DNA of 64,000 nt, from positions 7,874,001-7,938,000 of the forward strand of contig OZ024757.1 of the NCBI GenBank assembly GCA_964016885.1, given 5' to 3'. The notes beneath the pieces are model-generated. The model was not told the origin of the DNA. It did not search any database and saw nothing but the letters and a program-made list of their open reading frames with translations. Source of the stretch: Eledone cirrhosa (Eukaryota). Positions 1 to 42,639 of the stretch are shown piece by piece. A program made the translations under genes and the position numbers. Each line of letters starts with the position of its first letter. The stretch's first letter is position 1.

Positions 1-3000
1 TTCCACAGGGCGAGAACTCATTAATTCGAAGTAAATATTGCACATACACTACTATTTCCCTCGAATTTATGAGCTTTACTCCTTTAGAGGCAATGTCCTT
101 ATTACATGTGACATATAATCTACTATTTCCTTCGAATTGAAAAGTTCTAGTAATTTAGAGGCCATTTCTGTATTAAATATTGCATATAATCTAGTAATAC
201 CCTTCAAATTAATGAGTTTCAGCTCTGTAGAAGCCATTTCGGTATTAAATATTGCATAGACACTACTATTTCGTTCAAATTAATGAGTTGTAGCACTGTA
301 AAGCTATTTATGAATTAAATATTGCATATAATCTATTAATACTCTTCAAATTAAAAAGTTTTAATCCTGTAGAAGCCATTTCTGTATTAAATATTGCTTT
401 CATACTACTATTTACTACAAATTAAAAAGTTCTTGTCCTTAAGAAGCCATTTCCATATTAAATATGGCATATAATGTACTATTTCATTTGGATTAAAATT
501 TCTAGTCCTTTTCTAGACTTTTCTGAATTAAATATTGCACATATACAAATATATTCGTTCTAGTCTCTTGACAGCCATTTCTGTATTAAATATGGCATAT
601 ATACTACTATTTCCTTTGAATTGAGGAGTTCTAGTCTTTTAGAAGCCATTTCTGTATTAAATATGGCATATAATCTACTAATATCCTTTGAATTAATGAG
701 TTTTCATCCTGTAGAAGCCATTTCTCTATTAAATATTGCATATAATGTACTATTTCCTTCAAATTAATGAGATTTAGCCCTTTAGAAACCATTTCTATAT
801 TAAATGTTGCATATAAAATACTATTTCCTTTAGAAGCCATTTCTGTATTAAATATTGCACACACACTACTATTTCCCTCAAATTAATGAGCTTTAGTCCT
901 TTAGAAGCCATTTCCGTATTGAGTATAGCATATAATCTACTAATACCCTTTAAATTAAAGAGTTCTAGTCCTTTAGAAGACATTTCTGTATTAAATATGG
1001 CGTATATACTACTATTTCCTCAAATTATATTAATTTTACTCCTTTAGAAGCCATTTCTTTATTAAATATAGCATATACTCTACTGTATCTTTCAAATTGA
1101 GGCGTTGTAGTCTTCTAAAGGCCATTTTTGCATTAAATGTGGCATATAATCTACTAATACCCTTCAAATTAATGAGTTTCAGCCCTGTAGAAGTAATTTC
1201 TGTATCAAGTATTACATATACACTACTATTTTGTTCAAATTAATGAGTTCTAGCACTGTAGAAGCTATTTATGTATTAAATATAGCATATAATCTATTAA
1301 TACTCTTCAAATTAAAGAGTTTTAGTCCTGTAGAAGCCGTTTCTGTATTAAATATTTCATACATACTACTATTTACTACAAATTAAAGAGTTCTTATTCT
1401 TAAGAAGCCATTTCCATATTAAATATGGCATATAATATACTATTTCCTTTGAATTAAAAGTTCTAGTCCTTTAGAAGCCATTTCTGCGTTAAATATTGCG
1501 TATACTCTACTATTTCCTTCAAATTTATGGGTTCTAGCACTGTTGAAGCTATTTCTCTATTAAATATTGCATATACTGTACTATTTCCTTTGAAGCGAGG
1601 AGTTCTATTCCTTTAGAAGCAATTTCTGTATTGAATATTGCTCATATATTATTATTTCCCTTGAATTAATGAGATTTAGTCCTTTAGAAGCCATTTCCAT
1701 ATTAAATATGGCATATAATCTACTAATACCCTTCAAATTAAACAGTTCTACTGCTTTAGAAGCCATTTCTTTATTAAATATGGCATATATACTACTATTT
1801 CCTCCAATTATATTAGTTTTACTCCCTTAGATTTCATTCCTTTCTTAAATATTTCTGTATTAAATATGGCATATAATCTACAAATATCCTTCAAATTAAA
1901 GACTTCTAGTCATTTACAAGCCATTTATGTATTAAATATTGCATATAATGTACTATTTCCTTCGAATTAATGAGCTTTTGCCCTTTAGAAGCCATTTCTA
2001 TATTAAATGTTGCATATAATCTACTAATATCCTTCAAATCAGTGAGTTTTAGTCCTGTAGAAGCCATTTCTTTATTAAGTATGGCATATATACTACTATT
2101 TCCTTCGAATTAATGAGCTTTACTCCTTTAGAGACCATTTATTTATTATATCTGGCATATAATCTACTCTTTCCTATAAATTGAAAATAAAGAGTTCTAG
2201 TGCTTCAGAAGCCATTTCTGTATTAAATATTACATATATACTACTATTTACTACAAATATATTAGTTCTATTCCTTTGACAGTGATTTCTGTATTGAATA
2301 TTGCATATACTGTACTATTTCCTTAAAATTAAAGGGTTCTAGTGCTTTAGAAGCCATTTCTGTATTAAATATGGCATATATATTACTAATAGCCTTTAAA
2401 TTAAAGAGTTCTACTGCTTTAGAAGCCATTTCTGTATTAAATATTGTGTATACTCTACTATTTCCTTCGAATTACTGGTTTCTAGCTCTGCAGAAGCTAT
2501 TTCTGTATTAAACACTACATATATACTTCTATTTCCTCCAAAAATAGTAGTTGTCATCCTGTAGAAGACGTTTCTGTATTAAAAATAGGATATATACTAC
2601 TATTTGATTCGATTTAAAGAGTTCTAGTCCTTCAGAAGCCATTTCTGTATTAAATATGGCATATAATCTAATAATACCCCTCATATTAATGAGTTTTAGT
2701 CCTGTAGAAGCCATTTCATTATTAAATATTCGATATACTCTACTATTTCCATCGAATTAAAGAGATTTCTTCATTTAGAAGTAATTTCTGTATTAAATAT
2801 GGCATATAATCTAACAATAACCCTCATATTAATGATTTTTAGTCTTGTAGAAGCCATTTATGGAGTAAATATTGCATTTATACTACTATTTGATTCGAAT
2901 TAAAGCGTTCTAGTCCTTTAGAAGCCATTTCTTTATTAAATATGGCACATATACTACTAATAACCCTCATATTAATTAGTTTTAGTCCTGTAGAAGCTAT

Positions 3001-4750
3001 TTCTGTATTAAATATTGCATATACACTACTATTTCCATTGAATTAATGAGATCCCTCCATTTAGAAGCCATTTCTGTATTAAATATGGCACATATACTAC
3101 TAATAACCCTCATATTAATTAGTTTTAGTCCTGTAGAAGCTATTTCTGTATTACATATTGCATATACACTACTATTTCCATCGAATTAATGATATCTCTG
3201 AATTTAAAAGTCATTTCTGTATTAAATATGTTATATAATCAACTAATACCCTCATATTAATGAGTTTTAGTCCTTTAGAAGGCATTTCTGTATTAAATAT
3301 AGGATATATACTAGTATTTTATTCAATTTAAAGAGTTCTAGTCCTTTAGAACCCATTTCTGTATTAAATATGGCATATAATCTACTAATACCCCTCATAT
3401 TAATGAGTTTTCATCCTGTAGAAGCCATATCTATATTAAATATTGGATATACACTACAATTTACATCGAATAAATAAGTTCTCTACATTTAGAAGCCATT
3501 TACGTATTAAATATGGCATATATACTACTAATACCCCTCATATTAATGAGTTTTAGTCTTGTAGAAGCCATTTCTGCATTAAATATTGCATATATACTAC
3601 TATTTGATTCTAATTAAAGAGTTCTAGTCATTTAGAACCCATTTCCGTATTAAATATGCCATATACGCTACTAATACCCCTTATATAAATGAGTTTTATC
3701 TTTGTAGAAGACAGTTCTGTATTAAATATTGGATATACAGTATATTTCCATCGAATTAAAGAGATCTCTTCATTTAGAAGCCATTTGCGTATTAAATATG
3801 GCATATATACTACTAATAACCTTCATATTAATGACTTTTAGTCTTGTAGAAGACATTTCTGTATTAAATATTGGATATACAATAAATATTTCCTTCGAAT
3901 AAATTAGTTCTCTGCATTTAGAAGCCATTTACGTATTAAATATGGTATATATATATTACTAATACCCCTCATATTAATGAATTTAGTATTGTTGAAAAAA
4001 TTTCTCTATTAAATATTGCATCATCATCATCATCATCATCAACGTTTAACGTCCGTGTTCCACGCTTGCATGGGTTCGGACGGGGGTTTTCCCACTTGAG
4101 GCAAGAGTGGTTGTCTTGCTCGCATAGGACTGTCTGGCAGGTTTTCTACAGTTGGATGCCCTTCCTAACACCAACCACATTTACAGTGTGGGGCTGGGAG
4201 GTTTTTACCGTGTTGCCTACACAGCCACATTACAGCGTGGACTGTGTGTTTTTTTGTCGTGACACCTACACGATCTCATTTGTTTCGGCCTGGATGTTGT
4301 GACACCAACATAACTTTACATTGAAAGGGGCGGTGTGGATGGGGTGGGGATGGTGGGACGGGGTGTATTTTGTTAGAGATGCCTACTGGCTGTAGTAGGT
4401 TTTACTGTGTATTTAGGTAAGGCGGGTCTTCTCTGTTACTGAGTACCGCCAAAGGTCTCGGTCCAGTGACACTGTCTTGGAGAGGTGTAAGTGTGTGAGG
4501 TCGGAGTTTATCAGCTCGTCCCAGGTTTTTCTAGGTCTGCCTATTCCGTGGCTACCGTCTATCTTTATTGCCCTGCACTTTGTTATACAGCTATCGACTT
4601 TCATGCGCATCACGTGACCATACCAACGTAGCCTTCTCTCGAGTAAACAACATCTGATCCCTCTTATTTCTAATTTTTTCCTTAGTTCGTTTATGCTTTG
4701 CCGTTCACATATACGACTATTTCATTCTAATTAAAGAGTTCTAGTCCTTA
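1..4750 (+). repeat. ~71-72 bp AT-rich satellite array (block 1), interrupted by an RTE fragment at 4021-4710
   Basis: Recurring AGAAGCCATTTCTGTATTAAATAT motif, with AGCC at 573, 644 and 716 (period 71-72). The first ~35 bp are in the opposite orientation. Confidence 0.95.
4021..4710 (-). mobile_element. 5'-truncated RTE LINE (family B): ORF C-terminus, 3' UTR and (GAT)n tail
   Basis: ORF 4413-4613 has GRPRKTWDE and (CAT)n lies at 4021-4040. The insertion is absent from the paralogous satellite site near 26950. Confidence 0.9.
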
Positions 4751-4754
4751 TATA

Positions 4755-5490
4755 CAGCTACCTAGGGTACAGACCTCAGAGAGACACAGAGCTACCTAGG
4801 GTACAGACCTCAGAGAGACAACCACTCACCTAGGGTACAGACCTCAGACAGACACAGAGTCACCTAGGGTACAGACCTCAGAGAGACACAGAGCCACCTA
4901 GGGTACAGATCTTAGAGAGACACAGAGCTACCTAGAGTACAGATCTTAGAGAGACACAGAGTCACCTAGGGTACAAACCTCAGACAGACACAGAGCCAGC
5001 TAGGGTACAGACCTCAGACAGACACAGAGCCACCTAGGGTACAGATCTTAGAGAGACACAGAGCCACCTAGGGTACAGACCTTAGAGAGACAACCAGTCA
5101 CCTAGGGTACAGACCTCAGACAGACACAGACCCACGTAGGGTACAGACATCAGAGAGACACAGAGCCACCTAGGGTACAGACCTCAGAGAGATACAGAGC
5201 CACCTAGGGTACAGACCTGAGAGAGACATAGGGCCACCTAGGGTACAGACCTCAGAGAGACACAGAGCCACCTAGGGTACAGATCTCAGACAGACACAGA
5301 GCCACCTAGGGTACAGATCTCAGACAGACACAGAGCCACCTAGAGTACAGACCTCAGGGAGACACCCAGCCACCTAGGGTACAGATCTCAGGGAGACATA
5401 GGGCCACCTAGGGTACAGACCTCAGGCAGACATAGGGCCACCTAGGGTACAGAGAGACAGACAACCAGCTAGAGTACAGACATCAGATTG
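4755..5490 (+). repeat. 34 bp minisatellite CACCTAGGGTACAGACCTCAGAGAGACACAGAGC
   Basis: Unit starts at 4861 and 4895; roughly 20 copies. Confidence 0.95.
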
Positions 5491-5624
5491 GTAGATTACT
5501 GAACTTTAAAGTATCACAGTTTTATACAGGGCTGGTGCTACCATGAAGGCCAACTAGGGTACATTACAGAACCTTAAGGACATACTTAGTTCCCCTGCAA
5601 CACATTACCTAGTCTGGTATTATG

Positions 5625-6045
5625 AAGGCCCTGAACAAGGATGTTAAAGCTACACTTAATACACAGTGGTGTTAGGAAGGCCCTGAACATGGATGATGTT
5701 AAAAGCTACAATTAATACAGAGTAATGTTAGGAAGGCCCTGAACAAGGATATCAAAATCTACACTTAGAACACAGTAGTTTTAGGAAGGCCCAGAACAAG
5801 GATGTTAAAATCTACACTCTGTACACAATAATGTTAGGAAGGCCCTGAACAAGGATATCCAAATCTACACTTAGTACACAGTAATGTTAGAAAGGCCCTG
5901 AACAAGGATATAAAATGCTACACTCAGTACACAGTAATGTTAGGAAGGCCCTGAACAAGGATATAAAATGCTACACTTAGTACACAGTAATGGTAGGAAG
6001 GCCCTGAACAAGGATATCAAAATCTATATTTACAACACAGTTGTG
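5625..6045 (+). repeat. 53-54 bp minisatellite GTTAGGAAGGCCCTGAACAAGGATATCAAAATCTACACTTAGTACACAGTAAT
   Basis: Unit starts near 5727, 5780 and 5833. Confidence 0.92.
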
Positions 6046-6800
6046 TGTGTGTTTTGAGAATTAATAATTATATAAACAAGTTTGTAATGAACAATTTATT
6101 TCTTATCAAAACTGTATAAACATGATATTATTTACAGTAAGTATAACAATAATAATGATGGTTTCTAGTAAAGGTGGAAGGCCAGTAATTTGGGGGAGGG
6201 GAAAGTTGATTAAATCGAAGAGAGAAAGAAAGAAGAAACAGAACGGGAAGGAGAGGGGATGGCAAGAGGTCCGGTGTCGCAGAAGAGAGGGGAGGGTGGT
6301 TGAGCTTTGAGTCTAGGGCAAGAGGGCAGAAGTGCTGCGCCCCACGGATAAGACGGCAAAAGTATTCTCGCAGACGATGGCCAGAGATACCCAATGCAAC
6401 AACCACCCAACCTCGCGGGGTTCCCTCCTCAGATGGGCCGCTGACGCTCCAATCTTGTGGAGGAGCTCGGCAGTACGGGGTCCAAGTACTCCTGGGGTCT
6501 CAACGTTGACTGGTGCAGAGAGGAAGGGGCCGGACAGTCCTCGGTATTTGTTTATTTTACGTTCTTCTGCGAGGTGGGCTGCGATGCCGGGGTTTGTGGC
6601 CGAAACGACTTGGAAACGAAGTTGTAGGCGGAGATTGTGTCGTAGCTGGTGGTGTCCCAGATGAGGGACCTACGTCCTTCGAATGGGAAGAGAGTGATTC
6701 CGTCGGGGCGCTTGCCATCTCCGGGACCTGTTGGCCCCAGTTGTGATGGGAAGCCAGCTGCGTCCAGGCTTCTTCTCAATATGTCGTTGAGAACGGCGAG
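6042..6800 (-). mobile_element. 3' fragment of a CRE-clade (RLE) non-LTR retrotransposon: endonuclease end plus 3' UTR
   Basis: ORF 6552-6779 reads DGKRPDGITLFPF..LIWDTT, a PD-(D/E)xK-type motif homologous to the 55.2/57.3 kb element. On the minus strand it ends with AATAAA and an (AC)n tail. Confidence 0.82.
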
Positions 6801-7339
6801 TATCTATTCAATAATTATTTAAACATTGAAATTTTAGGTTCAACTACCTTTTAAACCAAATACATTAAGAAAGGCATGACCAACACCACATCATTTTTAT
6901 TTCTATTTTGAAAGTAGGTTTATAAGTATTAAATTTCAGTAGATTCTTATATCCTTCATGGTGGTCTGGTGGGAGATACGAGAGATGGTGGAGGTTCTGA
7001 TCTGGGGTTCAATCCTGCTTAGGAGATACTCTAAGGGGGTTCATACTAAACTTCTTCAGTGTTTCTTATCTCTAGAGACAAATATATATACATAAGGTAA
7101 TCTGGTAAAGTTGTTAGAACATCACATAGAATTCTTTGTAGTATTTTTTCCAGTTCTTTAATCTGAGTTCAACTTTACTTTTCTTCCATTCGGGGTTGAT
7201 AATAAAGTACCAGTCAAATACTAGGGGTTAATTCTTCCTCTATATCTCTTTCTCACTCTCTGTCTGTTTTATTAAGACATGGAGAGGTGATGTACTCTAC
7301 CAGGTTTCATAATGAGTGATGGGGTCATACCTGCCTGCA

Positions 7340-7415
7340 ATACTACTGTGTACTAAGTGTAGCATATTATATCCTTGTTCAGGGACTTCCTGACATTACT
7401 GTGTACTGAGTGTAG
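7340..7415 (-). repeat. inverted remnant of the 53 bp minisatellite
   Basis: Reverse complement of units near 27980-28050. Confidence 0.8.
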
Positions 7416-8392
7416 TAGAGTGTATGCCATATTTAATACAGAAATGGCTTATAAAGCACTAGAACTCTTTAATTTTAAGGAAATAGTACAGTATATGCAA
7501 TATTCAATACAGAAATCACTGTCAAAGGACTAGAACTAATATATTTGTAGTAAATAGTAGTATATATGTAATATTTAATACAGAAATTGCTTCTGAAGCA
7601 CTAGAACTCTTTAATTTGAAGGATATTAATAGATATTATGCAATATTTAATATGTAAATAGATTCCACAGGGCTAGAACTCATTAATTCGAAGGAAATAG
7701 TAGTGTATATGCAATATTTAATACAGAAATAACTTCTACAGGGCTGAAATTCATTAATATGAGGGACATTAATACATTATATGCTATATTTAATACAGAA
7801 ATTGCCTCTAAAAGACTAGAACTTTTCAGTTTATAGGAAAGAGTAGATTATATACCACATGTAATAAATAAATGGTCTCTAAAGGAGTAAAGCTCATTAA
7901 TTCGAAGGAAATAGTAGTATATATGCCATACTTAATATAGAAATGGCTTCTAAAGGGCAAAAGCTCATTAATTCAAAGGAAATAGTACATTATATGCAAT
8001 ATTTAATACAGAAATGGCTTGTGAAGGACTAGAAGTCATTAATTTGAAGGATATTTGTAGATTATATGCCATATTTAAGAAAGGAATGGATTCTAAGGGA
8101 GTAAAACTAACATAATTGGAGGAAATAGTAGTATATATGCCATATTTAATACGGAAATGGCTTCTAAAGGACTAAATCTCATTAATTTGAGGGAAATAGT
8201 AATGTATGTGTAATATTCAATACAGAAATTGCTTCTAAAGGAATAGAACTCTTCGATTCAAAGGAAATAGTACAGTATATGCAATATTTAACAGAGAAAT
8301 AGCTTCAACAGAGCTAGAACCCATAAATTTGAAAGAAATAGTAGAGTATACGCAATATTTAATACATAAATAGCTTCTACAGTGCTTGAACT

Positions 8393-8945
8393 TTTAGCAG
8401 TATTAGTTATAGATGTTATCGCCACTTTAGCAGGGTGGTAGAATCAGTGGTCGTTAGTTGCCAGTCTGGTAAGTGATAGTATCCTCGTTGGATTATCTTG
8501 TTGACATAGACGTGAGGGAAGGTCCCTCGATCTATTTACCATCTATTTACAATATTCCTTTCGGCAGGTCGCCAATTTCAGCAGCATGGATTAAAGTTGT
8601 TATTGAGACACGAGTAACATAATAACGACTTCAACCGCAGTAATTAGAGATGAAATGTTTGTTTATTTATATGGTTGAAGTTACAGATAAAAAGAGGTTA
8701 CAAAATGGAATGTGCCAATGCGCCGTTAAGCCGGCGAGGCTAGGGGTGCAATATCTCACTGCTACATTATGCGTGTTGCTGGCTCGAAGTTTCTGGTACA
8801 AGAGAGAGATTCTTCAAATCTTCGCGGGGAATTTCTTCCTCAGGGCACGTAGGGATACATCCTCTTCTACTGGCGCTGATTGGCTGAACTGAGCCAAATC
8901 ACGCACAGAGAATGTATGTGAGCCCGCGGAATGTAGGTCACTACA
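8393..8945 (-). mobile_element. solo LTR (553 bp), copy 1
   Basis: Reverse complement of 46923-47475 with the same length and termini TGTAGTG...TGCTAAA. No clean TSD here (AACT/GTAT). Confidence 0.75.
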
Positions 8946-10503
8946 GTATCATTGATTTGAACACAATAGTAGTGTATATGTAATATTTGTTACGGAAATT
9001 ACTTCTATAGGGTTGAAACTCATTAATTTAAGGGTATTAGTAGATTATATGCCACATTTAATGCAGAAATGACCTTCAGAAGACTACAATGCCTCAATTC
9101 GAAAGAAATAGTAGAGTATATGCTATATTTAATAAAGAAATGTCTTCTAAAGGAGTAAAATTAATATAATTTGAGGAAATAGTAGTATATACGCTATATT
9201 TAATACAGAAATGTCTTCTAAAGGACTTTTATTTAAAGGGTATTAGTAGATTATATTCTATACACAATACGGAAATGGCTTCTAAAGGACTAAAGCTCAT
9301 TAATTTGAGGGAAATAGTAGTGTATGTGCAATATTTAATACAGAAATGGCTTCTAAAGGAATAGAACTCTTCGATTCGAAGGAAATAGTATTTTATATGC
9401 AACATTTAATATAGAAATGGTTTCTAAAGGGCTAAATCTCATTAATTTGAAGGAAATAGTACATTATATGCAATATTTAATAGAGAAATGGCTTCTACAG
9501 GACGAAAACTCATTAATTCAAAGGATATTAGTAGATTATATGCCATATTTAATACAGAAATGGCTTCTAAAAGACTAGAACTCCTCAATTCAAAGGAAAT
9601 AGTAGTATATATGCCATATTTAATACAGAAATGGCTGTCAAGAGACTAGAACGAATATATTTGTATATGTGCAATATTTAATTCAGAAAAGTCTAGAAAA
9701 GGACTAGAAATTTTAATTCAAAGGAAATAGTACATTATATGCCACATTTAATATGGGAATGGCTTCTTGAGGACAAGAACTTTTAACTTGTAGTAAATAG
9801 TAGTATGAAAGCAATATTTAATACAGAAATGGCTTCTACAGGACTAAAACTTTTTAATTTGAAGAGTATTAATAGATTATATGCAATATTTAATTCATAA
9901 ATAGCTTCTACAGTGCTACAACTCATTAATTTGTACAAAATAGTAATGTATATGCAATATTTAATACAGAAATGGCTTCTACAAGGCTCAAACTCATTAA
10001 TTTGAAGGGTATTACTAGATTTTATGCTATATTTAATACAGAAATGGCCTCTAAATTACTAGAACTCTTCAATTCGAAGGAAATAGTAGATTATATGTCA
10101 CATGTAATAAGGAAATTGCCTCTAAAGGAGTAAAGCTCATACTTATGAGGGAAATAGTAGTATATGTGCAATATTTCCTTCAAATTAATGAGTTCTCGTC
10201 CTGTAGAATCTATTTACATATTAAATATTGCATATAATCTATTAATATCCTTCAAATTAAAGAGTTCTAGTGCTTCAGAAGACATTACATATATACTACT
10301 ATTTCTTGCAAATATATTAGTTCTAGTCTTTTGACAGCCATTTCTGTATTATATATTGCATATACTGTAATATTTCCTTAAAATTAAAGAGTTCTAGTGC
10401 TTTAGAAGCCATTTCTGTATTAAATATTGTGTATACTCTACTATTTCCTTCGAATTACTGGTTTCTAAGTCTTTGGAAGCTATTTCCGTATTAAATATTA
10501 CAT

Positions 10504-12988
10504 ATCATCATCATCACCGTTTTACGTCCGTTCTTCCACGCTAGCATGGGTTAGACGGGTTGTCCTGTTGTGGGCAGTATCTGGTCGGCTGACCATGCCT
10601 TGCTCATACAGGAACTGATTTGGCTTGATTTCTACAGCTGGATGCCCTTCCTAACACCAACCTCATTTACAGTGTGGGCTGGGTGCTTTTTTGCCATGTC
10701 ACCTCCACGACCACCTTGGGTGGGGGCATATTGTCTATGTGCTTCAGCTTGTACCCATGGGAGGTCGGGTACTCTGTATTATTGCGTGACGCCAGAAGTC
10801 ACGGTCGTGTGTCATTGTCTTTGAGAGGTGTAATTGGGTAAGATCAGCTTTTATCACCTCATCCCAGGTCATCTTGGGTCTCCCCACTCCGCGGTTTCCA
10901 TCAACTTCTAGTGCTCTGCACCTTTTTATGCAGCTGTCATCCTTCATACGCATCACATGTCCATACCAGCGCAACTGCCTCTCCTGCACACAGCATTTGA
11001 TTCCTCTTATGCTCAGTCTCTCTCTCAATTCATTTATGCTTTGTCGTTCACATATATTACTGTTACACATCCATCGGAGCATGCAGGCTTCGTTTCTCTC
11101 TAATCTACGTAAGTCTTCCACCTTCAGCGCCCAGGTCTCACTACCATGAAACATCGCTGTTCGGATACACGCATCATACAGTCTGCCTTTCATTCTGAGG
11201 GAGAAGCCTTTTGCAGCTAGCAGTGGTAGTAGTTACCTAAACTTCTTCCATCCCATTCTTACCCTAGTTATTGTACTTTCTGAACACCCACCTCCGTTGC
11301 TAATTCAGTCACCTAGGTAGCAGAAGCTGTCTACTGTTTCTACAGGGCCCTCCCAGAGATTGGTGGTACTTGTTTCCTGTGGCTGTTTGCTGCTTGCTGT
11401 CTCAGCATAGCTGCTGCATGTGAATCCTACATTCTCAATTAAGCTTTCTGAGATCCCGCTACATCTCCATAGATTCAGCTATGAGTGCGAGGTCATCAGC
11501 ATACAGGAGTTCCCATGGGCATCCGGTCTTAAACTCCTCTGTTATTGCCTGCAGGACTATGATGAACAGGAGAGGGCTAAGAACAGAGCCCTGGTGGACC
11601 CCAACCTGTACACTAAATTCCTTGCTATACTCATTGCTAATCCTAACTTTGCTGACTGCTCCCCTATACATGGCTTGTACCGCTTTCACAAGCCATTCAT
11701 CTACTCCTAGTTTTCTAAGAGCCCACCAGATTACAGCACGTGGAACTCTGTCAAAGGCTTTCTCAAGGTCGACAAATGCCAAGTAGAGTGGCTTACTTTT
11801 AGCTAGGTACTTTTCCTGTAATTGCCTCACAAGGAAGAGCGCATCAGTGGTGCCTTTCCCTGGTACGAACCCAAATTGCATCTCGTCTATTTTCACCCGG
11901 TCCCTAATCAACTGTGCTATAACTCTTTCTGTGACTTTCATGACCTGGTCCATCAACTTTATACCTCTATAGTTTCCTCTATCTAGTGCATCGCCTTTAC
12001 CTTTGTAGCAGTTGACAATGATGCTACTGCACCAATCTTTTGGTATGGCCCCTTCTCGTATTACCTGGTTAACAATACGTGTGGTTATAGTGTGACCTAC
12101 AGACCCAGATGCCTTCAGCATCTCGGCAGCTATACCCGATGGACCGGTTGCCTTCCCCATCTTCATATCTTTGATTGCCTTACTTACTACGCTGCTGCTG
12201 ACTTGTACTGCTGGTCCCTCTATAGGGTCTACTTGGTGTAGGGTCTCTTCTTCCCATGCATTCTCCTCATTTAGTAATCTATCATAATGACTCTTCCATG
12301 CATCTTTCTTCTCAGCACTTGTGAGGGCAAGCTCACCTTTATCATTCCGGATACACTTCTCTCCAATGACATCACAACTATCTCTGACACACTGCCTCGC
12401 AATCTTGAATACCTCCTGTTTCTGGTCCTCACGTTGTAAAACATGCTTGAATTTTCTATCCTCTGCTTCCCTCCTAGCTAAGTATACTTGTCACCTAGCT
12501 TCCCTCTTGGTCTCTATGTAATGTACCCTGCTCCCCCCGTTCTTCCATTCTTTCCATGCCTGTCTCTTGGACTTAACTGCTTCATCTACCTTATTGTTCC
12601 ACCACCAAGTCACTCTCCTCCTGCTTGTGGTCTTACTTACTCCAGCCACAGACCTCATCCGTCGCCTCTAGTAAATTATTTTTTAGGAACTCCCAGTTCT
12701 CTTCTACGTTAAATGTCTCTATCTGTTCTTCTTTACTGTCGTAGGCGTTGAGTAAAATATCTTTAAATCTGTTACTGGTTGAGGGGACTTTCAGCTTCCA
12801 GATCTTTATTCTCCAGGTTGGCCTCCGTTTCCAGGTTCGTCTAGTTCTGACCGTGAGGTCGCTGACAACTAAGCTATGTTGGGATGTACATTCCTCACTA
12901 GGGAAGGCTTTTGTGTTTACGGCCGTCCATCTGTCACGTCCTCTGATGAGGATAAAATCTAACTGACTAGAGTGCTCCCCTGATCTAT
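10504..12988 (-). mobile_element. RTE LINE (family A), 5'-truncated and internally deleted
   Basis: RT ORF 11459-12166 has NYRGIKL, FVDLEKAFDRV, GVHQGSVLSP and LYADD. Also APE C-terminus SQLDFIL, (GAT)n tail, and a deletion junction near 11470 relative to 34.6-37.9 kb. Confidence 0.93.
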
Positions 12989-16136: not shown

Positions 16137-16748
16137 AACATGCACATATCCATAAATATATATATACGTGTGTGTCCTTTCTGCACCATGCCCCTCCTCA
16201 ATCTAAAATATGTTTATGTGCCCCTTTAATATAAAAATAAACTCGAAAATATAAACAAACTTCTCGTAGGTGCTGCCAGATACACGATAACATGTGTAGA
16301 CGAAGTGTAACTGGAAGTTGGGTCGTATTATATCACTTTAAAATTGACCCCTATTATATTCAAATTAACCCCAGTGGGTCGTGCACCCCTCGTTGGGAAT
16401 CCCTGATATATAAATATATGTGAGCATGTTACTATGACTGCTATTTCTAGCAGATTTACTGCTGTCCTGTAGAATCACAACACAAACCGGAAGTGGCAAC
16501 CATTAAAAAACTTTGGCTTAAAATCAGTGAAAATATTTTAAACTAGAAAATTTTATGTAAACAAACCCGGAGGTTTTTGCCAAGAAAGATAACTCTTGTC
16601 TTACTTAATCGCAAAAAATCGAGACAAAAATTTTGCGGGTCCTGGTTGTTGGTATTTGACTGTTATTTCTAGCATATATGGACACTTTAGAAATAGCAGC
16701 GAAAACGGAATGAGGGTACACACACCCACATATATATATATCTGTGTG

Positions 16749-16815
<67 letters not shown>

Positions 16816-16845
16816 AGATCAAAAGATGGTTAAAAGAGTTCCATG

Positions 16846-16916
16846 TATTTTATTATGCGCATTTCAAAAACAAATATCATCACGCAATAACATTTGTGTT
16901 TTCATCAGATAAAATA
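16846..16916 (-). ncRNA. type I hammerhead ribozyme motif
   Basis: Minus strand: TATTTTAT-CTGATGA-stem II-GAAA-TGCGCA-TA-ATAAAATA. Confidence 0.8.
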
Positions 16917-17452
16917 GGAAGACATGATATGAAGGTTAAAGAACACTTGTGAATAGTGCAGTTTTAAATCAACATATGAAAAGTAGTTTTAGACTGATGT
17001 GTGATATTGGGAAAAAGTTTTTGAGGGCGGGGGTAGGTTGGAAAGGATGAAAAAGAGGAGGAGATGAGAGTAAAAAGTGGAGGGGGAGGAGTATAATGAG
17101 GAATGATGAGATAGGAGGAGAGATGGGTGGTAGAGAGAGAGAGATAGCTTTTATAACTGAGAAAAATATATTGTTTTACATAGAGAGGTTAAAAAACGGT
17201 TTTTAACCTCTCTATGTAAAATAATATATTTTTCTCAGTTATAAAAGCTATCTCTCCTCCTATCTCATCCTTCTTTATCATACTCCTCCCCTTCCATTCT
17301 TTACTCTCATCTCCTCCTCTTTTTCATCCTTTCCACCACCACGCCTCAATTTTTCCCCCCAATATCACACATCAATCTAAAACTACTTTTCATATGTTGA
17401 TTTAAAACTGCACTATTCACAAGTGTTTGTTAACCTTCATATCATGTCTCCC

Positions 17453-17523
17453 TATTTTATCTGACGAAAACGCAAATGTCAACGCATGATGATATTTGTT
17501 TTTGAAATGCGCATAATAAAATA
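17453..17523 (+). ncRNA. type I hammerhead ribozyme motif
   Basis: Stem I TATTTTAT/ATAAAATA, core CTGACGA 17461-17467, stem II, GAAA 17504-17507, palindromic TGCGCA, ATA triplet with predicted cut after 17515. Confidence 0.8.
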
Positions 17524-17764
17524 CATGGAACTCTTTTAACCATCTTTTGATCTTATATATTATATATATATATATGTATGTATATATACACACACATATA
17601 TATATATATGTGTATGTATGCACGTACACACACACACGATTATATATATATCATGGATATACGCCCCACAGGGAGCAATTTGTATATAATAGGGGCCAAT
17701 TTGAAGCAGAAAAGGTTGGGGACCACTGAAGACAACAAATCGTTCTTTTTATTTTATTACAATT

Positions 17765-18040
17765 GAGTTCAAATCCCGCCAAGGTTAACTTTGCCTTTCA
17801 TCCTTACGGGGTCGATATAATAAAGTACCAGTAATACACTGGGTAATTGCTGGCCTTGTGCCAAAAGTAGAAACAATTATTATTATCATATATATATATA
17901 TATATAATTGTTTATACTTTAGGCACAAGGCCAGCAATCAACCAGTGCATTACTGGTACTTTATTATATCGATCCCGTAAGGATGAAAGGCAAAGTTAAC
18001 CTTGGCGGGATTTGAACTCAGATCGTAAAGGGACGTAACT
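17765..18040. mobile_element. inverted pair of tRNA-derived SINEs (type B, Deu/Nin-domain-like)
   Basis: B box GAGTTCAAATC plus GCCTTTCATCCTTACGGGGTCGATA..AAGTACCAG, with two copies flanking a (TA)n tract. Other copies at ~7140, 18879, 21154 and 52747. Domain name is from memory. Confidence 0.7.
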
Positions 18041-21893: not shown

Positions 21894-24800
21894 TTAATTC
21901 GAAGGAAATAGTACATTATATGCAATATTTAATACAGATATGGTTTCTAAAGGACTAGAAATCTCTGATTCAAAGGAGAAATAGTAGTATATATGCAATA
22001 TTTAATACAGAAATAGCTTCTACAAGACTAAAACGCTTTAATTTGAAGAGTATTAATAGATTATATGCAATATTTAATATATAAATAGCTTCTACAGGGC
22101 TAGAACTCATTAATTGAAATCAAATGGTAGTGTATATGCAATATTTAATACAGACATGGCTTCTACGGGGCTGAAACTCTTTAATTTGAAGGGTATTCAT
22201 AGATTATATGCAATATTTAATAAAGAAATGGCTTCTAAGGGAATAAAACTAATATAATTGGGGGAAATAGTAGTATATATGTCATATTTAATAAAGGAAT
22301 GGCTTATAAAGCAGTAGAACTCTTTAATTTGAAGTGTATTAGTAGATTATATGCCATATTTAATACGGAAATGGCTTCTAAAGGATTAAATCTCATTAAT
22401 TCGAGGGAAATAGTAATGTATGTGCAATATTTAATACAGAAATGGCTTCTCAAGGACTAGAAATTTTAATTCAAATAAAATAGTACATTATATGCGATAT
22501 TAAATATGGAAATGGCTTCTTAAGGACAAGAACTCATTAATTCGTAGTAAATAGAAGTGTGTATGCAATATTTAATAAGTAAATAGCTTCCACAGGACTT
22601 GAACTCATTAATTCGAAGGGAATAGTAGTGTATATTCAATATTTAATACAGAAAAGTCTTCTACAGGATGACAACTAATATATTTGGAGGAAATAGAAGT
22701 ATATATGTAATATTTAATACGGAAATAGCTTCCACAGAGCTAGAAACCAGTAATGCGAAGGAAATAGTAGAGTATACACAATATTTAATACAGAAATGGC
22801 TTCTAAAATACTAGAATTATTCAATTTGATGGAAATAGTAGAGTATATGCATTATTTAATAAAGAAATGGCTTCTAAAGAAGTAAAACTAATATAATTGG
22901 AGGAAATAGTAGTATATATGCCATATTTAATACAGAAATGGCTTCTAAAGCACTAGAACTCTTTAATTTTAGGGAAATAGTACAGTATATGCAATATATA
23001 ATACAGAAATGGCTGTCAAAGGACTAGAACTAATATATTTGCAGGAAATAGTAGTATATATGTAATGTCTTCTGAAGCACTAGAACTCTTTAATTTGAAG
23101 GATATTAATAGATTATATGCAATATTTAATACGTAAATAGATTCCACAGGGCTAGAACTCATTAATTTAAAGGAAATATTGCACATACACTACTATTTCC
23201 CTCAAATTTATGAGCTTTACGCCTTTAGAGGCAATTTCCTTATTACATGTGACATATAATCTACTATTTCCTTCGTATTGAAGAGTTCTAGTATTTTAGA
23301 GACCACTTATGTATTAAATATAGCATAAAATCTAGTAATACCCTTCAAATTAATGAGTTTCAGCCCCGTAGAAGCCATTTCTGTATTAAATATTGCATAG
23401 ACACTACTATTTTGTTCAAATTAATGAGTTGTAGCACTGAAGAAGCTATTTATCTATTAAATATTGCATATAATCTATTAATACTCTTCAAATTAAAGAG
23501 CTTTAGTCCTGTAGAAGCCATTTCTGTATTAAATATTGCTTTCATACTACTATTTACAACAAATTAAAAAGTTCTTGTCCTTAAGAAGTCATTTCCATAT
23601 AAAATATGGCATATAATGTACTATTTCCTTTGAATTAAAATTTCTAGTCCTTTTCTAGACTTTTCTGAATTAAATATTGCACATATACAAATATATTCGT
23701 TCTAGTCACTTGACAGCCATTTCTGTATTAAATATGGCATATATACTACTATTTCCTTTGAATTGAGGACTTCTAGTCTTTTAGAAGCCATTTCTGTATT
23801 AAATATTGCATATAATGTACTATTTCCTTTGAATTGAGGAGTTTTCGTCCTGTAGAAGCCATTTCTCTATTAAATATTGCATATAATGTACTATTTCCTT
23901 CAAATTAATGAGATTTAGCCCTTTAGAAACCATTTCTATATTAAATGTTGCATGTAAAATACTATTTCCTTTGAATCGAAGAGTTCTATTCCTTTAGAAG
24001 CCATTTCTGTATTAAATATTGCACATACAATACTGTTTCCCTCAAATTAATGAGCTTTAGTCCTTTAGAAGCCATTTCCGTATTGAGTATAGAATATAAT
24101 CTACCCTTTAAATGAAAGCATTCTAGTCCTTTAGAAGACATTTCTGTATTAAATATGGCGTATATACTATTATTTCCTCAAATTATACTAATTTTACTCT
24201 TTTAGAAGCCATTTCTTATTAAATATAGCATATACTCTACTATTTCTTTCGAATTGAGGCGATGTAGTCTTCTGAAGGCCATTTCTGCATTAAATGTAGC
24301 ATATAATCTACTAATACCCTTCAAATTAATGAGTTTCAGCCCTGTAAAAGCCATTTCTGTATTAAATATTGCATATACACTATAATTTTGTTCAAATTAA
24401 TGAGTTGTAGCACTGTAGAAGCTATTTATCTATTAAATATGGCATATAATCTATTAATACTCTTCAAATTAAAGACTTTTAGTCCTGTAGAAGCCGTTTC
24501 TGTATTAAATATTGCATACATACTACTATTTACTACAAATTAAAGAGATCTTATTCTTAAGAAGCCATTTCCATATTAAATATGGCATATAATGTACTAT
24601 TTCCTTTGAATTAAAAGTTCTAGTCATTTAGAAGCCATTTCTGCATTAAATATTGCGTATACTCTACTTTTTCCTTCAAATTGATGGGTTCTAGCTCTGT
24701 TGAAGCTATTTTTCTATTAAATATTGCATATACTGTACTATTTCCTTTGAATCGAAGAGTTCTATTCTTTAGAAGCAATTTCTGTATTGAATATTGCACA

Positions 24801-26995
24801 TATATTATTATTTCCCTTGAATTAATGAGATTTAGTCCTTTAGAAGCCATTTCCATATTAAATATGGCATATAATCTACTAATACCCTTCAAATTAAAGA
24901 GTTCTACTGCTTTAGAAGCCATTTCTTTATTAAATATTGCATATATACTACTATTTCCTTCAATTATATTAGTTTTACTCCCTTAGAATCCATTCCTTTC
25001 TTAAATATTTCTGAATTAAATATGGCATATAATCTACAAATACCCTTCAACTTAATGACTTTTAGGACTTTACAATGTATTAATGTATTAAATATTGCAT
25101 ATAATGTACTATTTCCTTAGAATTAGTGAGCTTTTGCCCTTTAGAAGCCATTTCTATATTAAATGTTGCATATAATCTACTAATATTCTTCAAATCAGTG
25201 AGTTTTAGTCCTGTAGAAGCCATTTCTTTATTAAGTATGGCATATATAATACTATTTTCTTCGAATTAATGAGCTTTACTCCTTTAGAGACCATTTCTGT
25301 ATTATATCTGGCATATAATCTACTATTTCCTATAAATTGAAAGTTTCTAGTCTTTTAGAGGCAATTTCTGTATTAAATATAGCATATAATGTATTAATGC
25401 CCCTCATATTAATGAATTTCAGCCCTGAAGAAGTTATTTCTGTATTAAATATTGCATATACACTACTATTTCCTTCGAATTAATGAGTTCTAGCCCTGTG
25501 GAATCTATTTACATATTAAATATTGCATAAAATCTATTAATATCCTTCAAATTAAAGAGTTCTAGTGCTTCAGAAGCAATTTCTGTATTAAATATTACAT
25601 ATATACTACTAGTTACTACAAATATATTAGTTCTAGTCCTTTGACAGTGATTTCTGTATTGAATATTGCATATACTGTACTATTTCCTTAAAATTAAAGA
25701 GGTCTAGTATTTTAGAGGCCATTTCTGTATTAAATATTGTGTATACTCTACCATTTCCTTCAAAATACTGGTTTCTAGCTCTGCGGAAGCTATTTCTGTA
25801 TTAAATATTACATATATACTTCTATTTCCTCCAAATATATTAGTTGTCATCCTGTAGAAGACGTTTCTGTATTAAATATACGATATATACTACTATTTGA
25901 TTCAATTTAAAGAGTTCTAGTCCTTCAGAAGCCATTTCCGTATTAAATATGGCATATAATCTAATAATACCCCTCATATTAATGAGTTTTAGTCCTGTAG
26001 AAGCCATTTCATTATTAAATATTCGATATACTCTACTATTTCCATCGAATTAAAGAGATTTCTTCATTTAGAAGCCATTTCTGTATTAAATATGGCATAT
26101 AATCTAACAATAACCCTCATATTAATGATTTTTAGTCTTGTAGAAGCCATTTCTGTAGTAAATATTGCATTTATACTACTATTTGATTCGAATTAAAGCG
26201 TTCTAGTCCTTTAAAAGCCATTTCTGTATTAAATATTGTATATACACTACTATTTCCATCGAATTAATGAGATCCCTCCATTTAGAAGCCATTTCTGTAT
26301 TAAATATGGCACATATACTACTAATAACCCTCATATTAATTAGTTTTAGTCCTGTAGAAGCTATTTCTGTATTAAATATTGCATATACACTACTATTTCC
26401 ATCGAATTAATGATATCCCTGAATTAAAAAGCCATTTCTGTATTAAATATGTTATATAATCTACTAATACCCTCATATTAATGAGTTTTAGTCCTTTAGA
26501 AGGCATTTACGTATTAAATATAGGATATATACTACTATTTTATTCAATTTAAAGAGTTCTAGTCCTTTAGAACCCATTTCTGTATTAAATATGGCATATA
26601 CACTACTAATACCCCTTATATAAATGAGTTTTAGCTTTGTAGAAGACAGTTCTGTATTAAATATTGGATATACAGTATATTTCCATCGAATTAAAGAGAT
26701 CTCTTCATTTAGAAGCAATTTGCGTATTAAATATGGCATATATACTACTAATACCCCTCATATTAATAACTTTTAGTCTTGTAGAAGGCATTTCTGTATT
26801 AAATATTGGATATACATTACTATTTCCATCGAATAAATTAGTTCTCTGCATTTAGAAGCAATTTACGTATTAAATATGGCATATAAACTACTAATACCCC
26901 TCATATTAATGAATTTAGTATTGTTGAAGCAATTTCTCTATTAAATATTGCATATATACGACTATTTCATTCTAATTAAAGAGTTCTAGTCCTTA
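21893..26995. repeat. 71-72 bp satellite block 3 (minus to ~23175, then plus)
   Basis: Monomer variants occur in the same order as 1-4750 from 23142 onward. Confidence 0.95.
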
Positions 26996-34535: not shown

Positions 34536-34611
34536 TATATATATAATATATATATATTATATATAACATATATATTTAACATATATATATATATATAATA
34601 TATATATTTCA

Positions 34612-37600
34612 TATACGAAGAGCAGGAGAAATCATAGAAATGCTAGAGCGAAAGGAAATTGATGTATGCTGTGTGCAAGAGACTAGATGGAGAGGAGAGT
34701 CTGCCAGAGTTCTTGTAGGAAAAAGTCGGTGCTACAAATTTTTCTGGGTGGGAAATGACGATGGGATGGGTGGTGTAGGTATACTACTAGCTGACAAGTG
34801 GGTAGATAAAGTTATTTCAGTGTACAGGGTAAATGCAAGAATCATTAAACTCAGACTAGTCCTGAATAAAACAATTACCACAATAATATCAGCTGACGCA
34901 CCCCAATCGGGGCTGCCAGACGAACTTAAGGATAGATTTTACGAGTCCCTAATGCACACTACTGCTCTAACAGACGACAATGACTTCCTAATCATCGCAG
35001 GAGATTTTAACGGACACGTAGGTAAACACTCCGACGGCTTCAATAGAGTACATGGAGGCCATGGGGTTGGCACAAGAAATGAGGAAGGATTCAGACTTCT
35101 AGAATTCTGCAACGCCAATGACATGTCGATATGTAACACAAACTTTAAAAAACCCGACAACCACCTGATCACCTATAGATCAGGGGAGCACTCCAGTCAG
35201 ATAGATTTTATCTTCATCAGAGGACGTGACAGATGGACGGTCGTAAACACAAAAGCCTTCCCTATTGAGGAATGTACATCCCAACATAGCTTAGTTGTCA
35301 GCGACCTCATGGTCAGAACTAGACGAACCTGGAAACAGAGGCCAACCTGGAGAAGAAAGATCTGGAAGCTGAAAGTCCCCTCAACCAGTAACAGATTTAA
35401 AGATATTTTACTCAACGCCTACGACAGTAAAGAAGAACAGATAGAGACATTTAATGTAGAAGAGAACTGGGAGTTCCTAAAAAATAATTTACTAGAGGCG
35501 ATGGATGAGGTCTGTGGCTGGAGTAAGACCTCAAGCAGGAGGAGAATGACTTGGTGGTGGAACAATAAGGTAGATGAAGCAGTTAAGGCCAAGAGACAGG
35601 CATGGAAAGAATGGAAGGAGCAGGGTACATTACATAGAGACCAAGAGGGAAGCTAGGCGACAAGTATACTTAGCTAGGATGGAAGCAGAGGATAGAAAAT
35701 TCAAGCATGTTTTGCAACGTGAGGACCAGAAACAGGAGGTATTCAAGATTGCGAGGCAGTGTGTCAGAGATAGTTGTGATGTCATTGGAGAGAAGTGTAT
35801 CCGGAATGATAAAGGTGAGCTTGCCCTCACAAGTGCTGAGAAGAAAGATGCATGGAAGAATCATTATGATAGATTACTAAATGAGGAGAATGCATGGGAA
35901 GAAGAGACCCTACCCCAAGTAGACCCTATAGAGGGACCAGCAGTACAAGTCAGCAGCAATGTACTAAGTAAGGCAATCGAAGATATGAAGATGGGGAAGG
36001 CAACTGGTCCATCGGGTATAGCTGCCGAGATGCTGAAGGCATCTGGGTCTGTAGGTCACACTATAACCACACGTATTGTTAACCAGGTAATACTAAAAGG
36101 TGTCATACCAAAAGATTGGTGCAGTAGCATCATTGTCAACTGCTACAAAGGTAAAGGAGATGCACTAGATAGAGGAAACTATAGAGGTATAAAGTTGATG
36201 GACCAGGTCATGAAAGTAACAGAAAGAGTTATAGCACAGTTGATTAGGGACCGGGTGGAAATAGACGAGATGCAATTTGGGTTTGTACCAGGAAGAGGCA
36301 CCACTGATGCCCTCTTCCTTGTGAGGCAATTACAGGAAAAGTACCTAGCTAAAAGTAAGCCACTCTACTTGGCATTTGTCGACCTTGAGAAAGCCTTTGA
36401 CAGAGTTCCACCTGCTGTAATCTGGTGGGCTCTTAGAAAACTAGGAGTAGATGAATGGCTTGTGAAAGTGGTACAAGCCATGTATAGGGGAGCAGTCAGC
36501 AAAGTTAGGATTGGCAATGAGTATAGCGAGGAATTTAGGGTATAGGTTGGGGTCCACCAGGGCTCTGTTCTTAGCCCCCTCCTGTTCATCATATTCCTGC
36601 AGGCAATAACGGAGAAGTTTTAGACCGGATGCCCAAGGGAACTCCTGTATGCTGATGACCTCAAACTCATAGCTGAATCTATGGTAGAACTAGAGAATAA
36701 ATTCCAAACTTGGAAGCAGGGACTAGAAAGAAAGCGTCTCAAAGTCAACATGACAAAAACTAAGCTCCTTGTAAGTAGATGAGAAAACAGAACCCAGATC
36801 CCCTCAGGGAAATGGCCATGCTCAGTATGTAGGAAAGGTGTAGGTAGGAACTCCATTCTCTGCCCCAAATGCAAACAAGGGGTACACAAGAGATGTAGCG
36901 GGATCTCAGGAAGCTTAATTAAGAATGTAGGCTTCACATGCAGCAGCTGTGCTGAGACAGCAAGCAGCAAACAGCCACAGGAAACAAGTACCACCAATCT
37001 CTGGGAGGGCTCTGTAGAAACAGTAGATAGCTTCTGCTACCTAGGTGACCAAATTAGCAGCGGAGGTGGGTGTCCAGAAAGTACAATAACTAGAGTAAGA
37101 ACGGGATGGAAGAAGTTTAGGGAACTACTGCCACTGCTAGCTGCAAAAGGCTTCTCCCTCAGAATGAAAGGCAGACTGTATGATGCGTGTATCCGAACAG
37201 CAATGTTGCATGGTAGTGAGACCTGGGCGCTGAAGGTGAAAGACTTACGTAGATTAGAGAGAAACGAAGCCTGCATGCTCCGATGGATGTGTAACAGTAA
37301 TAATAACGACAAAGCATAAATGAATTGAGAGAGAGACTGAGCATAAGAGGAATCAAATGCTGTGTGCAGGAGAGGCGGTTGCACTGGTATGGACATGTGA
37401 TGCGTATGAAGGATGACAGCTGCATAAAAAGGTACAGAGCACTAGAAGTTGATGGAAACCGCGGAGTGGGGAGACCCAAGATGACCTGGGATGAGGTGAT
37501 AAAAGCCGACCTTACTCAATTATACCTCTCAAAGGCAATGACACACGACCATGACTTCTGGCGTCACGCAGTAATACAGAGTACCCGATCTCCCATGGGT

Positions 37601-39613: not shown

Positions 39614-39955
39614 GGAGGCACATGGCTTAGTGGTTAGAGCATTGGCCTTGTATTCGAAATGTTGTGAGTTCAATTCTCAGACTGTGTGATGTGTTGTTTC
39701 CTTGAGCAAGACACTTTATTTCACATTGCTCCAGTTTACTCAGCTGTAGAAATGAGATGATAGGGACTGGGGTTCATATCATTCCACTGCAAAGTGGTCG
39801 TGGAGGTGCCACGGCAAAAAAGCACCCAGCACTCTCTGTAAATGAGGTTGGTGTTAGGAAGGGCATCCAGCTGTAGAAATCAAGCCAGAATCAGTTCAGT
39901 CCCACCCTTGCAAGAAGGGAATAGCGGACGTAAAATGATGATGATGATGATGATA
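39614..39955 (+). mobile_element. SINE type A
   Basis: Homologous to 15266-15646. Confidence 0.85.
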
Positions 39956-40983: not shown

Positions 40984-42123
40984 TTAAGATTTCTCTGCAT
41001 GTATGAGTTTGTGAGTAGTTAGGCTACTTTTTCCAGAGAATGATATACCACAGATATCACAGTGATATGGCTTGTCTCCTGTATGGGTACGTTTGTGGCT
41101 AGTTAAGGTACTACTTTGAGAGAATGATTTACCACAGATATCACAGTGATATGGCTTGACCCCTGTATGTATACGTTTGTGGCTAGTTAAGTTACCACTT
41201 ACAGAGAATGATTTACCACAAATATCACATTGATATGGCTTGTCTCCTGTATGTATACGCTTGTGTCTATTTAAATGACCACTTACAGAGAATGATTTAC
41301 CACAGATATCACAGTTATATGGCTTGTCTCCTGTATGGGTACGTATATGGCCCGTTAAGTTACTACTTTGAGAGAATGATTTACCACAGATATCACAGTG
41401 GTATGGCTTGTCTCCTGTATGTATACGTTTGTGGTTAGTTAAGATACCATTACCAGAGAAAGATTTACCACAGATATCACAGTGATATGGCTTGTCTGCT
41501 GTATGTATACGTTTGTGGGAAGTTAAGTGACTACTTCGAGAGAATGATTTACCACAGATATCACAGTGGTATGGCTTGTCACCTGTATGGGTATGTTTGT
41601 GTCTAGTTAAGGTACTACAATCAGAGAATGATTTACCACAGATATCACAGTGGTATGGCTTGTCTCCTGTATGTATACGTTTGTGGCTAGTTAAGTAACT
41701 ACTCTCAGTGAATGATTTACCACAGATATCACAGTGATATGGCTTGTCTACTGTATGTATATGTTTGTGTCTGGTTAAGTGACTACTTTGAGAGAAATAT
41801 TTACCACAGATGTCACAGTGGTATGGCTTGTCTCCTGTATGGGTACGTAAGTGTTTAGTTAATGCATCACTTCGAGGGAATGTTTTACCACAGATCTCAC
41901 AGCGATATGGCTTCTCATCTGTAGGTAAATGGTTGTGACTAGTTAGGCTACTTTTCCCAGAGAATGATTTAGCACAGATATTACAGTGATATGGTTTGTC
42001 TCCTGTATGTATAACTTTGTGAGTAGTTAAGGTACTACGTATATTGAATGATTTACCACAGATATTGCAGTGATATGGTTTCTCTTCTCCAACCTTTGTC
42101 ATCTCACCAGGAATACTAAACAT
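40984..42123 (-). CDS. tandem C2H2 zinc-finger protein, 13 fingers (finger 2 lacks the last His); cephalopod-type expanded ZNF family
   Basis: Open frame with [13 protein letters not shown] repeats and TGDKP linkers. First in-frame ATG is at 42123; the ORF track start at 42159 is TTG. Candidate acceptor TTTCAG near 42349 and AATAAA near 40115. Confidence 0.92.
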
Positions 42124-42639
42124 TTTCGATTGTATTTCGCATTTAACCTTTTCACTCAATTTATTTCCTATAATAATTTTATCTCCAACAGAATATACTT
42201 GTAATACTTTTTAGATTATATTCCTAAAAAATATATCTTCTATATTTCCCGCAACTGTGATTTCAGTTAATAGTCTTCAAATGATGATAAATGGAGGTGA
42301 TGTATCCGAGATTGAAAATAATAATTTATCCCAATGTCATCTGGTATTCTGAAATAAGATAGAAACAGTATGAGATAATACAGAATACTTAAGAAGCAGA
42401 GATAGATTTAACAGTGGAAATTTTATATTTCTATTTTGGTAAACTGTAGATATCAACTTTCCTGTCCAGAGTAATTCTCTCCAATGCAAACAGTTGTATT
42501 CCAGCATGTTCTATAAATGTTATCCTTCTATCTCTAGAGAAGTCTGCTCTATGGCAGTTTAGTGAAAAATTCATTCTGATAGGACTCTCTAACATAGCTA
42601 TTATCTCCTCTGCTGGTGACATGACAACACCAGTTTAAC

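Follow-up and report, generated by a model that had tools for sequence, protein, structure and literature searches.

A fold-back that carries a hammerhead ribozyme fold on each strand raises the question of whether it is an RNA unit in its own right or the residue of another element. Such a locus lies in a 64,000-nt stretch of the Eledone cirrhosa genome, which we analyzed as a whole and refer to as the window. We conclude, with a probability of roughly 0.9, that the fold-back consists of two end copies, both 5'-truncated, of an abundant Hydra-clade Penelope-like element (PLE), lying head to head in (TA)n with the hammerheads as passengers, and that its arms differ most likely through ectopic recombination with a neighboring insertion of another subfamily.

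Two hammerhead folds in an ORF-less fold-back

The fold-back measures 761 bp (approximately 16800-17570 of the window), and its arms align at 86.4% over 793 columns. Its parts are as follows:

16729..16806, no strand: (TA)n-rich target microsatellite, left
16807..17201, minus strand: left arm, 5'-truncated pseudo-LTR (pLTR)/3' end of a Hydra-clade PLE, ending in (TA)n; hammerhead half and flank most likely from an unfolded insertion, X
16846..16916, minus strand: type I hammerhead fold, CTGATGA subfamily allele
16941..17018, no strand: putative crossover interval between insertion X and the original left arm; informative sites at arm offsets 184 and 261
17187..17208, no strand: hairpin apex, a 7-nt arm overlap at a quasi-palindrome; exact junction present four times in the genome
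17195..17562, plus strand: right arm, 5'-truncated pLTR/3' end of the same PLE family (insertion Y)
17391..17396, plus strand: CATATG palindrome in the pLTR, the apex of 2,027 compact fold-backs elsewhere but not the apex here; candidate RNA 5' end
17453..17523, plus strand: type I hammerhead fold, CTGACGA subfamily allele; predicted cut after 17515
17563..17640, no strand: (TA)n-rich target microsatellite, right

Scanned on both strands with a descriptor, the 64-kb window yields exactly two type I hammerhead folds, at 17453-17523 on the plus strand and 16916-16846 on the minus strand. Both have an 8-bp stem I, a CTGACGA or CTGATGA core, GAAA, TGCGCA and a UA cleavage pair, and the cut predicted from the sequence falls after 17515 (U16.1 = 17514, A17 = 17515). 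The first pair of stem II reads as A-U in these predicted folds instead of the usual G-C. In 100 dinucleotide shuffles, the descriptor matched 0.01 times on average when stem I was at least 5 bp and never when it was at least 8 bp, and no shuffle was comparable to the observed pair. The fold-back has (TA)n at both outer ends, and its longest ATG-started frame encodes 36 aa. The initial annotation, made from the sequence of the window, had described the same opposite-strand pair, conserved elements, cut site and lack of an ORF, and on all of these points the scan agrees with it. Its statement that the arms differ mostly in stem II and its loop holds within the hammerhead, where the changes are concentrated in N7, stem II and loop II, but not for the arms as a whole: the bulk of their differences lies outside the hammerhead in the purine-rich 5' half and includes a 21-nt indel. 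The Rfam search that it had suggested returned no hammerhead family, whether at gathering score for the window or at E<=10 for 16600-17800. Rfam miRNA matches, all below gathering scores, were dismissed as hairpin and TA-repeat noise.

Chimeric reads can yield palindromes, and no contig from four public runs was shown to extend across the window apex. However, arms that are just 86% identical, with a 21-nt indel between them, and a junction found at four places, each with its own mutations and flanks, leave an assembly or read fold-back artefact with a negligible probability.

The arms are ends of an abundant Penelope-like retrotransposon

Querying the 3.0-Gb genome with the right arm gave 2,571 first-look candidates, the best 40 of which were scored. 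Exact copies of a 34-nt stretch of the hammerhead number 13,935 genome-wide (control, 0), and head-to-head pairs are common among such copies. At locus L037, the order is pLTR, ORF, 3' UTR, pLTR and (TA)n, with the window arm in the position of the pLTR. Because the arm stands on either side of the ORF and 3' UTR in this layout, the window arm is a pseudo-LTR, and both arms derive from the pLTR/3' end of an element that has a long ORF. Within the window, only the two arms match the parent sequence, and no parent element was found among the ORFs of the window, which are of LINE RT/APE, hAT and C2H2 types only. A 96-nt gap in L037 had suggested a 5' intron; we rejected this idea, as the gap is a deletion private to that copy.

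When the L037 ORF was searched against its own genome, the best 90 of 51,797 first-look candidates were scored; these show 93-100% identity, and many lie in open frames of 820-821 aa. An intact 809-aa ORF is present in locus L080 (L080:1336-3765, plus strand). Many intact ORF copies of 809-821 aa are 93-97% identical, which argues for a recent burst.

Pfam was blank for the ORF fragments and the intact 809-aa ORF, as was a sequence search of solved structures with the single protein. In 66 aligned relatives, Pfam gives weak matches (E<=0.05) to GIY-YIG (PF01541) in 5 and to RVT_1 in 4, and protein-atlas neighbors carry GIY-YIG (26-50% of members), RVT_1 and HTH_animal. A profile search of solved structures gives a weak retron RT match (E 0.011), and pairwise alignment with the L047 ORF, from another PLE family, is marginal (E 8e-4). 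We modeled the 809-aa ORF on an alignment of the 66 sequences, which gave a pLDDT of 88 (single-sequence fold, 34). The top Foldseek matches of this model are telomerase RTs, and a further structural comparison, which spans residues 64-499, again matches telomerase (Z 16.6, rmsd 5.8, 301 aligned). The L080 ORF has the RT motifs QFDI and YRDD, a candidate GIY-YIG with an LIY..YFG motif at 687-704, and an Asn/Ser-rich, low-confidence linker at approximately 593-663. With its single ORF for a telomerase-related RT, a hammerhead in the pLTR, direct or inverted pLTRs, 5' truncation and an optional tail, the family has features of an EN+ PLE.

Other elements were seen at the loci retrieved. An RT frame at L050:2096-4105 (plus strand) belongs to a second family with similar motifs, L047:2995-4566 (minus strand) is an RT plus GIY-YIG PLE of another clade, and L046:7754-9385 (plus strand) is a weak RVT_1 frame. 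The (TA)n tracts gather several nested element families.

Placement in the Hydra clade

The Hydra clade is diagnosed by DKT rather than DKG, a CxCX5C linker, absence of CCHH, CxxC and CxH flanking E and N, and RWK (PMC8557442). The L080 ORF has DKT at 132, CxCX5C at 668, CxxC at 768 and CxH at 796, with no CCHH between GIY and YIG. Among 47 relatives of at least 600 aa, DKT occurs in 35, DKG in 4 and RWK in 10; L080 itself has RWTA at 46-49. The family inserts into (TA)n. These motifs, in which all the diagnostic ones save RWK are present, suggest that the parent family belongs to the Hydra clade.

The family shares DKT, CxCX5C, the lack of CCHH and (TA)n targets with Hydra-clade C-terminal EN+ PLEs (Craig et al., 2021, PMC8557442), and a type I hammerhead near the 3' end with members such as Penelope-13_HM and Hydra-1_Obim (PMC8557442). 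It differs from the Hydra-clade elements described there in having RWT or RWI in place of RWK, a unit of more than 3 kb, an Asn/Ser-rich linker and a copy number in the thousands. The defining study of the clade names one cephalopod Hydra family, which has a different hammerhead (PMC8557442). The present hammerhead departs from that of Hydra-1_Obim in its sequence, in its longer stem II and in having a palindromic stem III of 8 nt. A 15-nt piece of the hammerhead and two protein motifs are absent from the supplement text of PMC8557442. Our literature search returned no description of this PLE family or of the apex hot spot described below, and the family may be catalogued in Repbase, Dfam or subscription papers. 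As a Hydra-clade element, it is recent, present in very high copy and rich in intact ORFs.

Head-to-head pairs and their precedents

Divergent hammerhead pairs are found at 12 of 30 loci from the right-arm search and at 9 of 20 larger loci, two sets that overlap; head-to-head pairs are frequent in the Eledone cirrhosa genome. This layout is already known for Penelopes, and as a locus the fold-back is an unremarkable Penelope remnant. Copies that are inverted and 5'-truncated, and tails on one side only, have been described for PLEs (PMC8557442), and the supplement of that paper includes a 5'-truncated inverted copy of Penelope-13_HM with the same hammerhead on both strands. Head-to-head Penelope junctions bear palindromes (PMC3846280), Penelope protein extends both strands in vitro, and two RT start sites define the tail of Penelope insertions (PMC11167929).

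Our family resembles canonical Penelope inverted pLTRs (PMC3846280; PMC11167929) in its head-to-head arrangement, palindromic inverted junction and tail at a single end, the one-sided tail matching the two reverse-transcription start sites. In contrast to canonical Penelope, the tail is approximately 90 nt rather than 30-40, one apex hot spot underlies 2,027 fold-backs, and the window copy is a later chimera. Dual minimal hammerheads on opposite strands, approximately 100-700 bp apart, have been reported, as has low, dimer-dependent cleavage (PMC4209133). Like those, the present folds are type I with a long helix II and a palindromic helix III, and are predicted to dimerize; stem I is 8 bp here and 4-5 bp there, and the first stem II pair is A-U (predicted) rather than G-C. 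Non-LTR retrozymes (bioRxiv 10.64898/2026.07.22.740005) are likewise non-coding, PLE pLTR-derived and equipped with type I hammerheads, but they form head-to-tail tandems with hammerheads on the same strand, whereas the locus is head to head with one hammerhead per strand. No retrozyme-type head-to-tail unit with same-strand hammerheads was found in the window, which holds only two copies, on opposite strands.

We propose that the original pair formed during insertion, when synthesis would have been primed on both nicked strands of the target and the two cDNAs joined through a short palindrome. The present chimera would likely have come from a later crossover within a locally duplicated region.

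Why the arms differ

The initial annotation had noted that the arms have diverged and yet both keep an allowed ribozyme core. In 77 distinct genomic copies of the hammerhead, the differences between the two arms recur as linked alleles of the family: 58 copies have C at N7 and 19 have T, in linkage with stem II variants. Conservation across genomic copies had been named as a test of the ribozyme; the core is intact in 73 of the 77. The five common stem polymorphisms all retain pairing as wobbles, with no two-sided compensatory change.

Arms of a pair usually match. We scored 19 pairs from 21 loci, two loci being without a full-length partner, and the median difference is 1.2% within pairs versus 4.1% between loci (p=1.7e-6). 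Of the 19, the pair in the window differs most (9/173), with L022 (5.1%) close behind. The left-flank motif of the window occurs six times in the genome, twice before the fold-back and four times before an unfolded single insertion, X, whose copies share the left-arm haplotype and include one on another chromosome. In the four paralogues, X consists of the arm, 130 more nt, a short inverted tail and a TA tract. The right-flank motif occurs eight times, and four of these are empty sites preceded by the left flank of a sister locus, A (L002/L003), whose two hammerheads nearly match each other. The left arm and its flank are thus found unfolded elsewhere and the right flank as an empty site. Within the left arm of the window, all 7 informative sites at offset 261 and beyond agree with X, and those at offsets 98 and 184 and at the apex agree with locus A; offsets 21 and 144 are ambiguous, because X or the right arm also match there.

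Given that four paralogous sites hold the left arm and flank in unfolded form, the locus is most likely a recombinant chimera. The simplest reading of these letters would be a crossover at approximately 16941-17018 between the left arm of locus A and X, most likely an ectopic event in which the outer half of the left arm was replaced by a neighboring insertion of another subfamily. With the arm letters explained by family alleles plus recombination, the combination of divergence and conservation reflects inheritance from an active lineage, not selection on the locus.

We also considered that the arms came from two RNA templates in one insertion, and that the unfolded X copies arose later by apex breakage and repair from another copy. 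X-like letters do extend close to the apex in sister locus A, 1 of 15 comparable compact fold-backs (L139) has arms of mixed subfamilies, and the capacity of Penelope protein to extend both strands in vitro (PMC11167929) would suit such an event. However, X is complete and normally structured in four paralogues, one of them on another chromosome, the empty Y site is bordered by the left flank of locus A and not by that of the window, and the arms of pairs normally match. We consider the two-template origin unlikely and favor recombination.

In the purine-rich part, a C/T change that distinguishes L002/L003 from L001/L004 is common to both arms within a locus and not shared between loci, which hints at gene conversion from arm to arm.

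The junction is confined to local duplicates

The exact apex junction occurs four times in the genome, always on the contig of the window (C18). These copies represent two loci 38 kb apart, within a segment that is repeated 550 kb away at approximately 99% identity. The repeated segment is at least 55 kb long (C18:7843000-7898900 versus 8394600-8451500, 550.6 kb apart, approximately 99% identity) and holds the start of the window; the pair is either a recent segmental duplication or a retained haplotype. Near C18:5.02-5.04 Mb there is a rearranged paralogue, and in a fifth paralogue, L012, the left arm and apex are deleted. The right arm has a tail of approximately 90 nt in paralogues L002-L004, which is missing from the window along with approximately 2.1 kb.

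The initial annotation had proposed a protein-free dsRNA-producing or non-autonomous mobile unit. In the corresponding reading, the whole 761-bp fold-back would be a stand-alone unit in the manner of a retrozyme or MITE, transcribed, self-cleaving and copied in one piece. The absence of an ORF, the two intact cores and the fourfold junction would agree with it. Against this, all four junctions lie on one contig in a segment duplicated at approximately 99% identity 550 kb away and are related by shared flanks, there are no retrozyme-style tandem repeats, and the hammerhead is predicted to be sequestered, with stem pair probabilities of 0.0 (see below). Both arms represent truncated termini of a retrotransposon that codes for protein, and the junction is found in local duplicates only. 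The junction count largely refutes such a unit, and we regard it as highly improbable. A MITE or fold-back DNA transposon was rejected for the same pattern, namely just four junctions, all in local duplications, with no dispersal to unrelated sites.

Compact fold-backs turn at a pLTR palindrome

Among the first 100 hammerhead matches listed, many form opposite-strand pairs approximately 240 bp apart. The 16 such pairs that we fetched are compact fold-backs that turn at the CATATG palindrome of the pLTR, and a gap-pattern search of the genome identified 2,027 such apices (control, 0). Among 50 apex loci listed, the junction is perfect in 23 and has changed letters in 27. A 24-mer starting from the palindrome has 11,264 matches and, when extended 10 nt upstream, 1,523, a drop that subfamily variation explains in part. 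Contigs of the four public runs, which come from one study, contain many inverted joints near 16977/17392.

Several properties fit with compact fold-backs being formed anew at each insertion. In 14 of 15 comparable fold-backs, the two arms agree in subfamily haplotype, and several subfamilies are represented. Asymmetries between arms that are shared by different fold-backs number only two and resemble family polymorphisms. One end is tail-less and the other tailed in 14 of 16 scored (18 examined; examples L111-L119, L127-L141). Two routes of formation are equally compatible with these observations, priming on both strands with run-off at the RNA 5' end, or snap-back at the palindrome.

We tentatively suggest that the approximately 2,000 twin-hammerhead fold-backs of approximately 400 bp, with CATATG approximately 60 nt upstream of the hammerhead, are independent records of Penelope integration. 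In this proposal, a dimeric RT would prime both target strands at two internal start sites on a short transcript of the pLTR and continue until it ran off the 5' end, with transcription starting near 17392; the cDNAs would then be joined at the palindrome. We rate this scheme as a genuine possibility that falls short of an even chance. The fixed apex, matched arms and asymmetric tails across thousands of inverted insertions make self-priming versus both-strand priming a testable choice.

Predicted folding of the ribozymes

As monomers, the hammerhead folds show no exceptional stability (z -1.09 and -0.48). When two copies of the right-arm motif are cofolded, the minimum structure is a double hammerhead with an 8-bp palindromic stem III, and in the cofold this stem arises solely as an 8-bp dimer helix. 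This prediction agrees with the earlier description of a Penelope-type type I hammerhead whose palindromic stem III suits dimeric cleavage.

The fold-back RNA behaves differently in prediction from what had been proposed, namely that a transcript of either strand would self-cleave near its 3' end. Each strand contains one sense hammerhead, with the antisense of the other arm upstream of it. In the predicted fold-back RNA, the opposite arm pairs with 65 of 71 bases in one hammerhead and 69 of 71 in the other, and a structure constrained to contain the hammerhead is a predicted 83-89 kcal/mol less favorable. The pair probabilities of stems I and II are 0.0 in the fold-back versus 0.9-1.0 in an RNA that starts at 17392. 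The lone sense hammerhead in read-through RNA of the locus is thereby predicted to be buried in the hairpin and inactive, which speaks against self-cleavage of the fold-back transcript. Penelope hammerhead activity is protein-assisted and dispensable for insertion in vitro (PMC11167929). In the active element, the hammerhead would likely be maintained through dimeric or protein-assisted cleavage of tandem transcripts.

The hairpin has a predicted energy of approximately -532 kcal/mol, and dsRNA from the locus is possible, provided that it is transcribed. This energy, in a region rich in repeats and zinc fingers, might suggest that the host has retained the locus as a source of long dsRNA, for small RNAs or as an A-to-I editing substrate, or as a regulatory ribozyme. 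We find host retention very unlikely: the paralogues are unstable (L012 is without the left arm and apex, the window is without the tail and 2.1 kb, and arms have been exchanged), the hairpin is one among thousands of similar ones, and its hammerheads are conserved no differently from those of the family. Collectively, the thousands of near-perfect hairpins in the genome are a plausible candidate for a bulk source of dsRNA.

Other features of the window

The window contains several further elements. An uninterrupted 908-aa frame at 61127-63853 (plus strand) has DUF4371 and hAT dimerization domains and is an intact hAT-type transposase or a ZMYM-like gene. A 408-aa frame at 40984-42210 (minus strand) encodes tandem C2H2 zinc fingers with an 84-bp repeat. 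LINE fragments with APE and RT domains lie at 34580-36545 (plus strand), 11459-12490 (minus strand) and 54004-54519 (plus strand), and the intervals 11467-12544 and 35607-36684 are complementary copies (96%). Interleaved satellite arrays with 71/143-bp, 34-bp and 53-bp units occur in both orientations (1-3900, 7300-10500, 21900-26300; 4644-5555; 5594-6105). A tRNA-like match at 39619-39686 (plus strand), which scores 30 bits against an Rfam gathering score of 29, is probably the head of a SINE.
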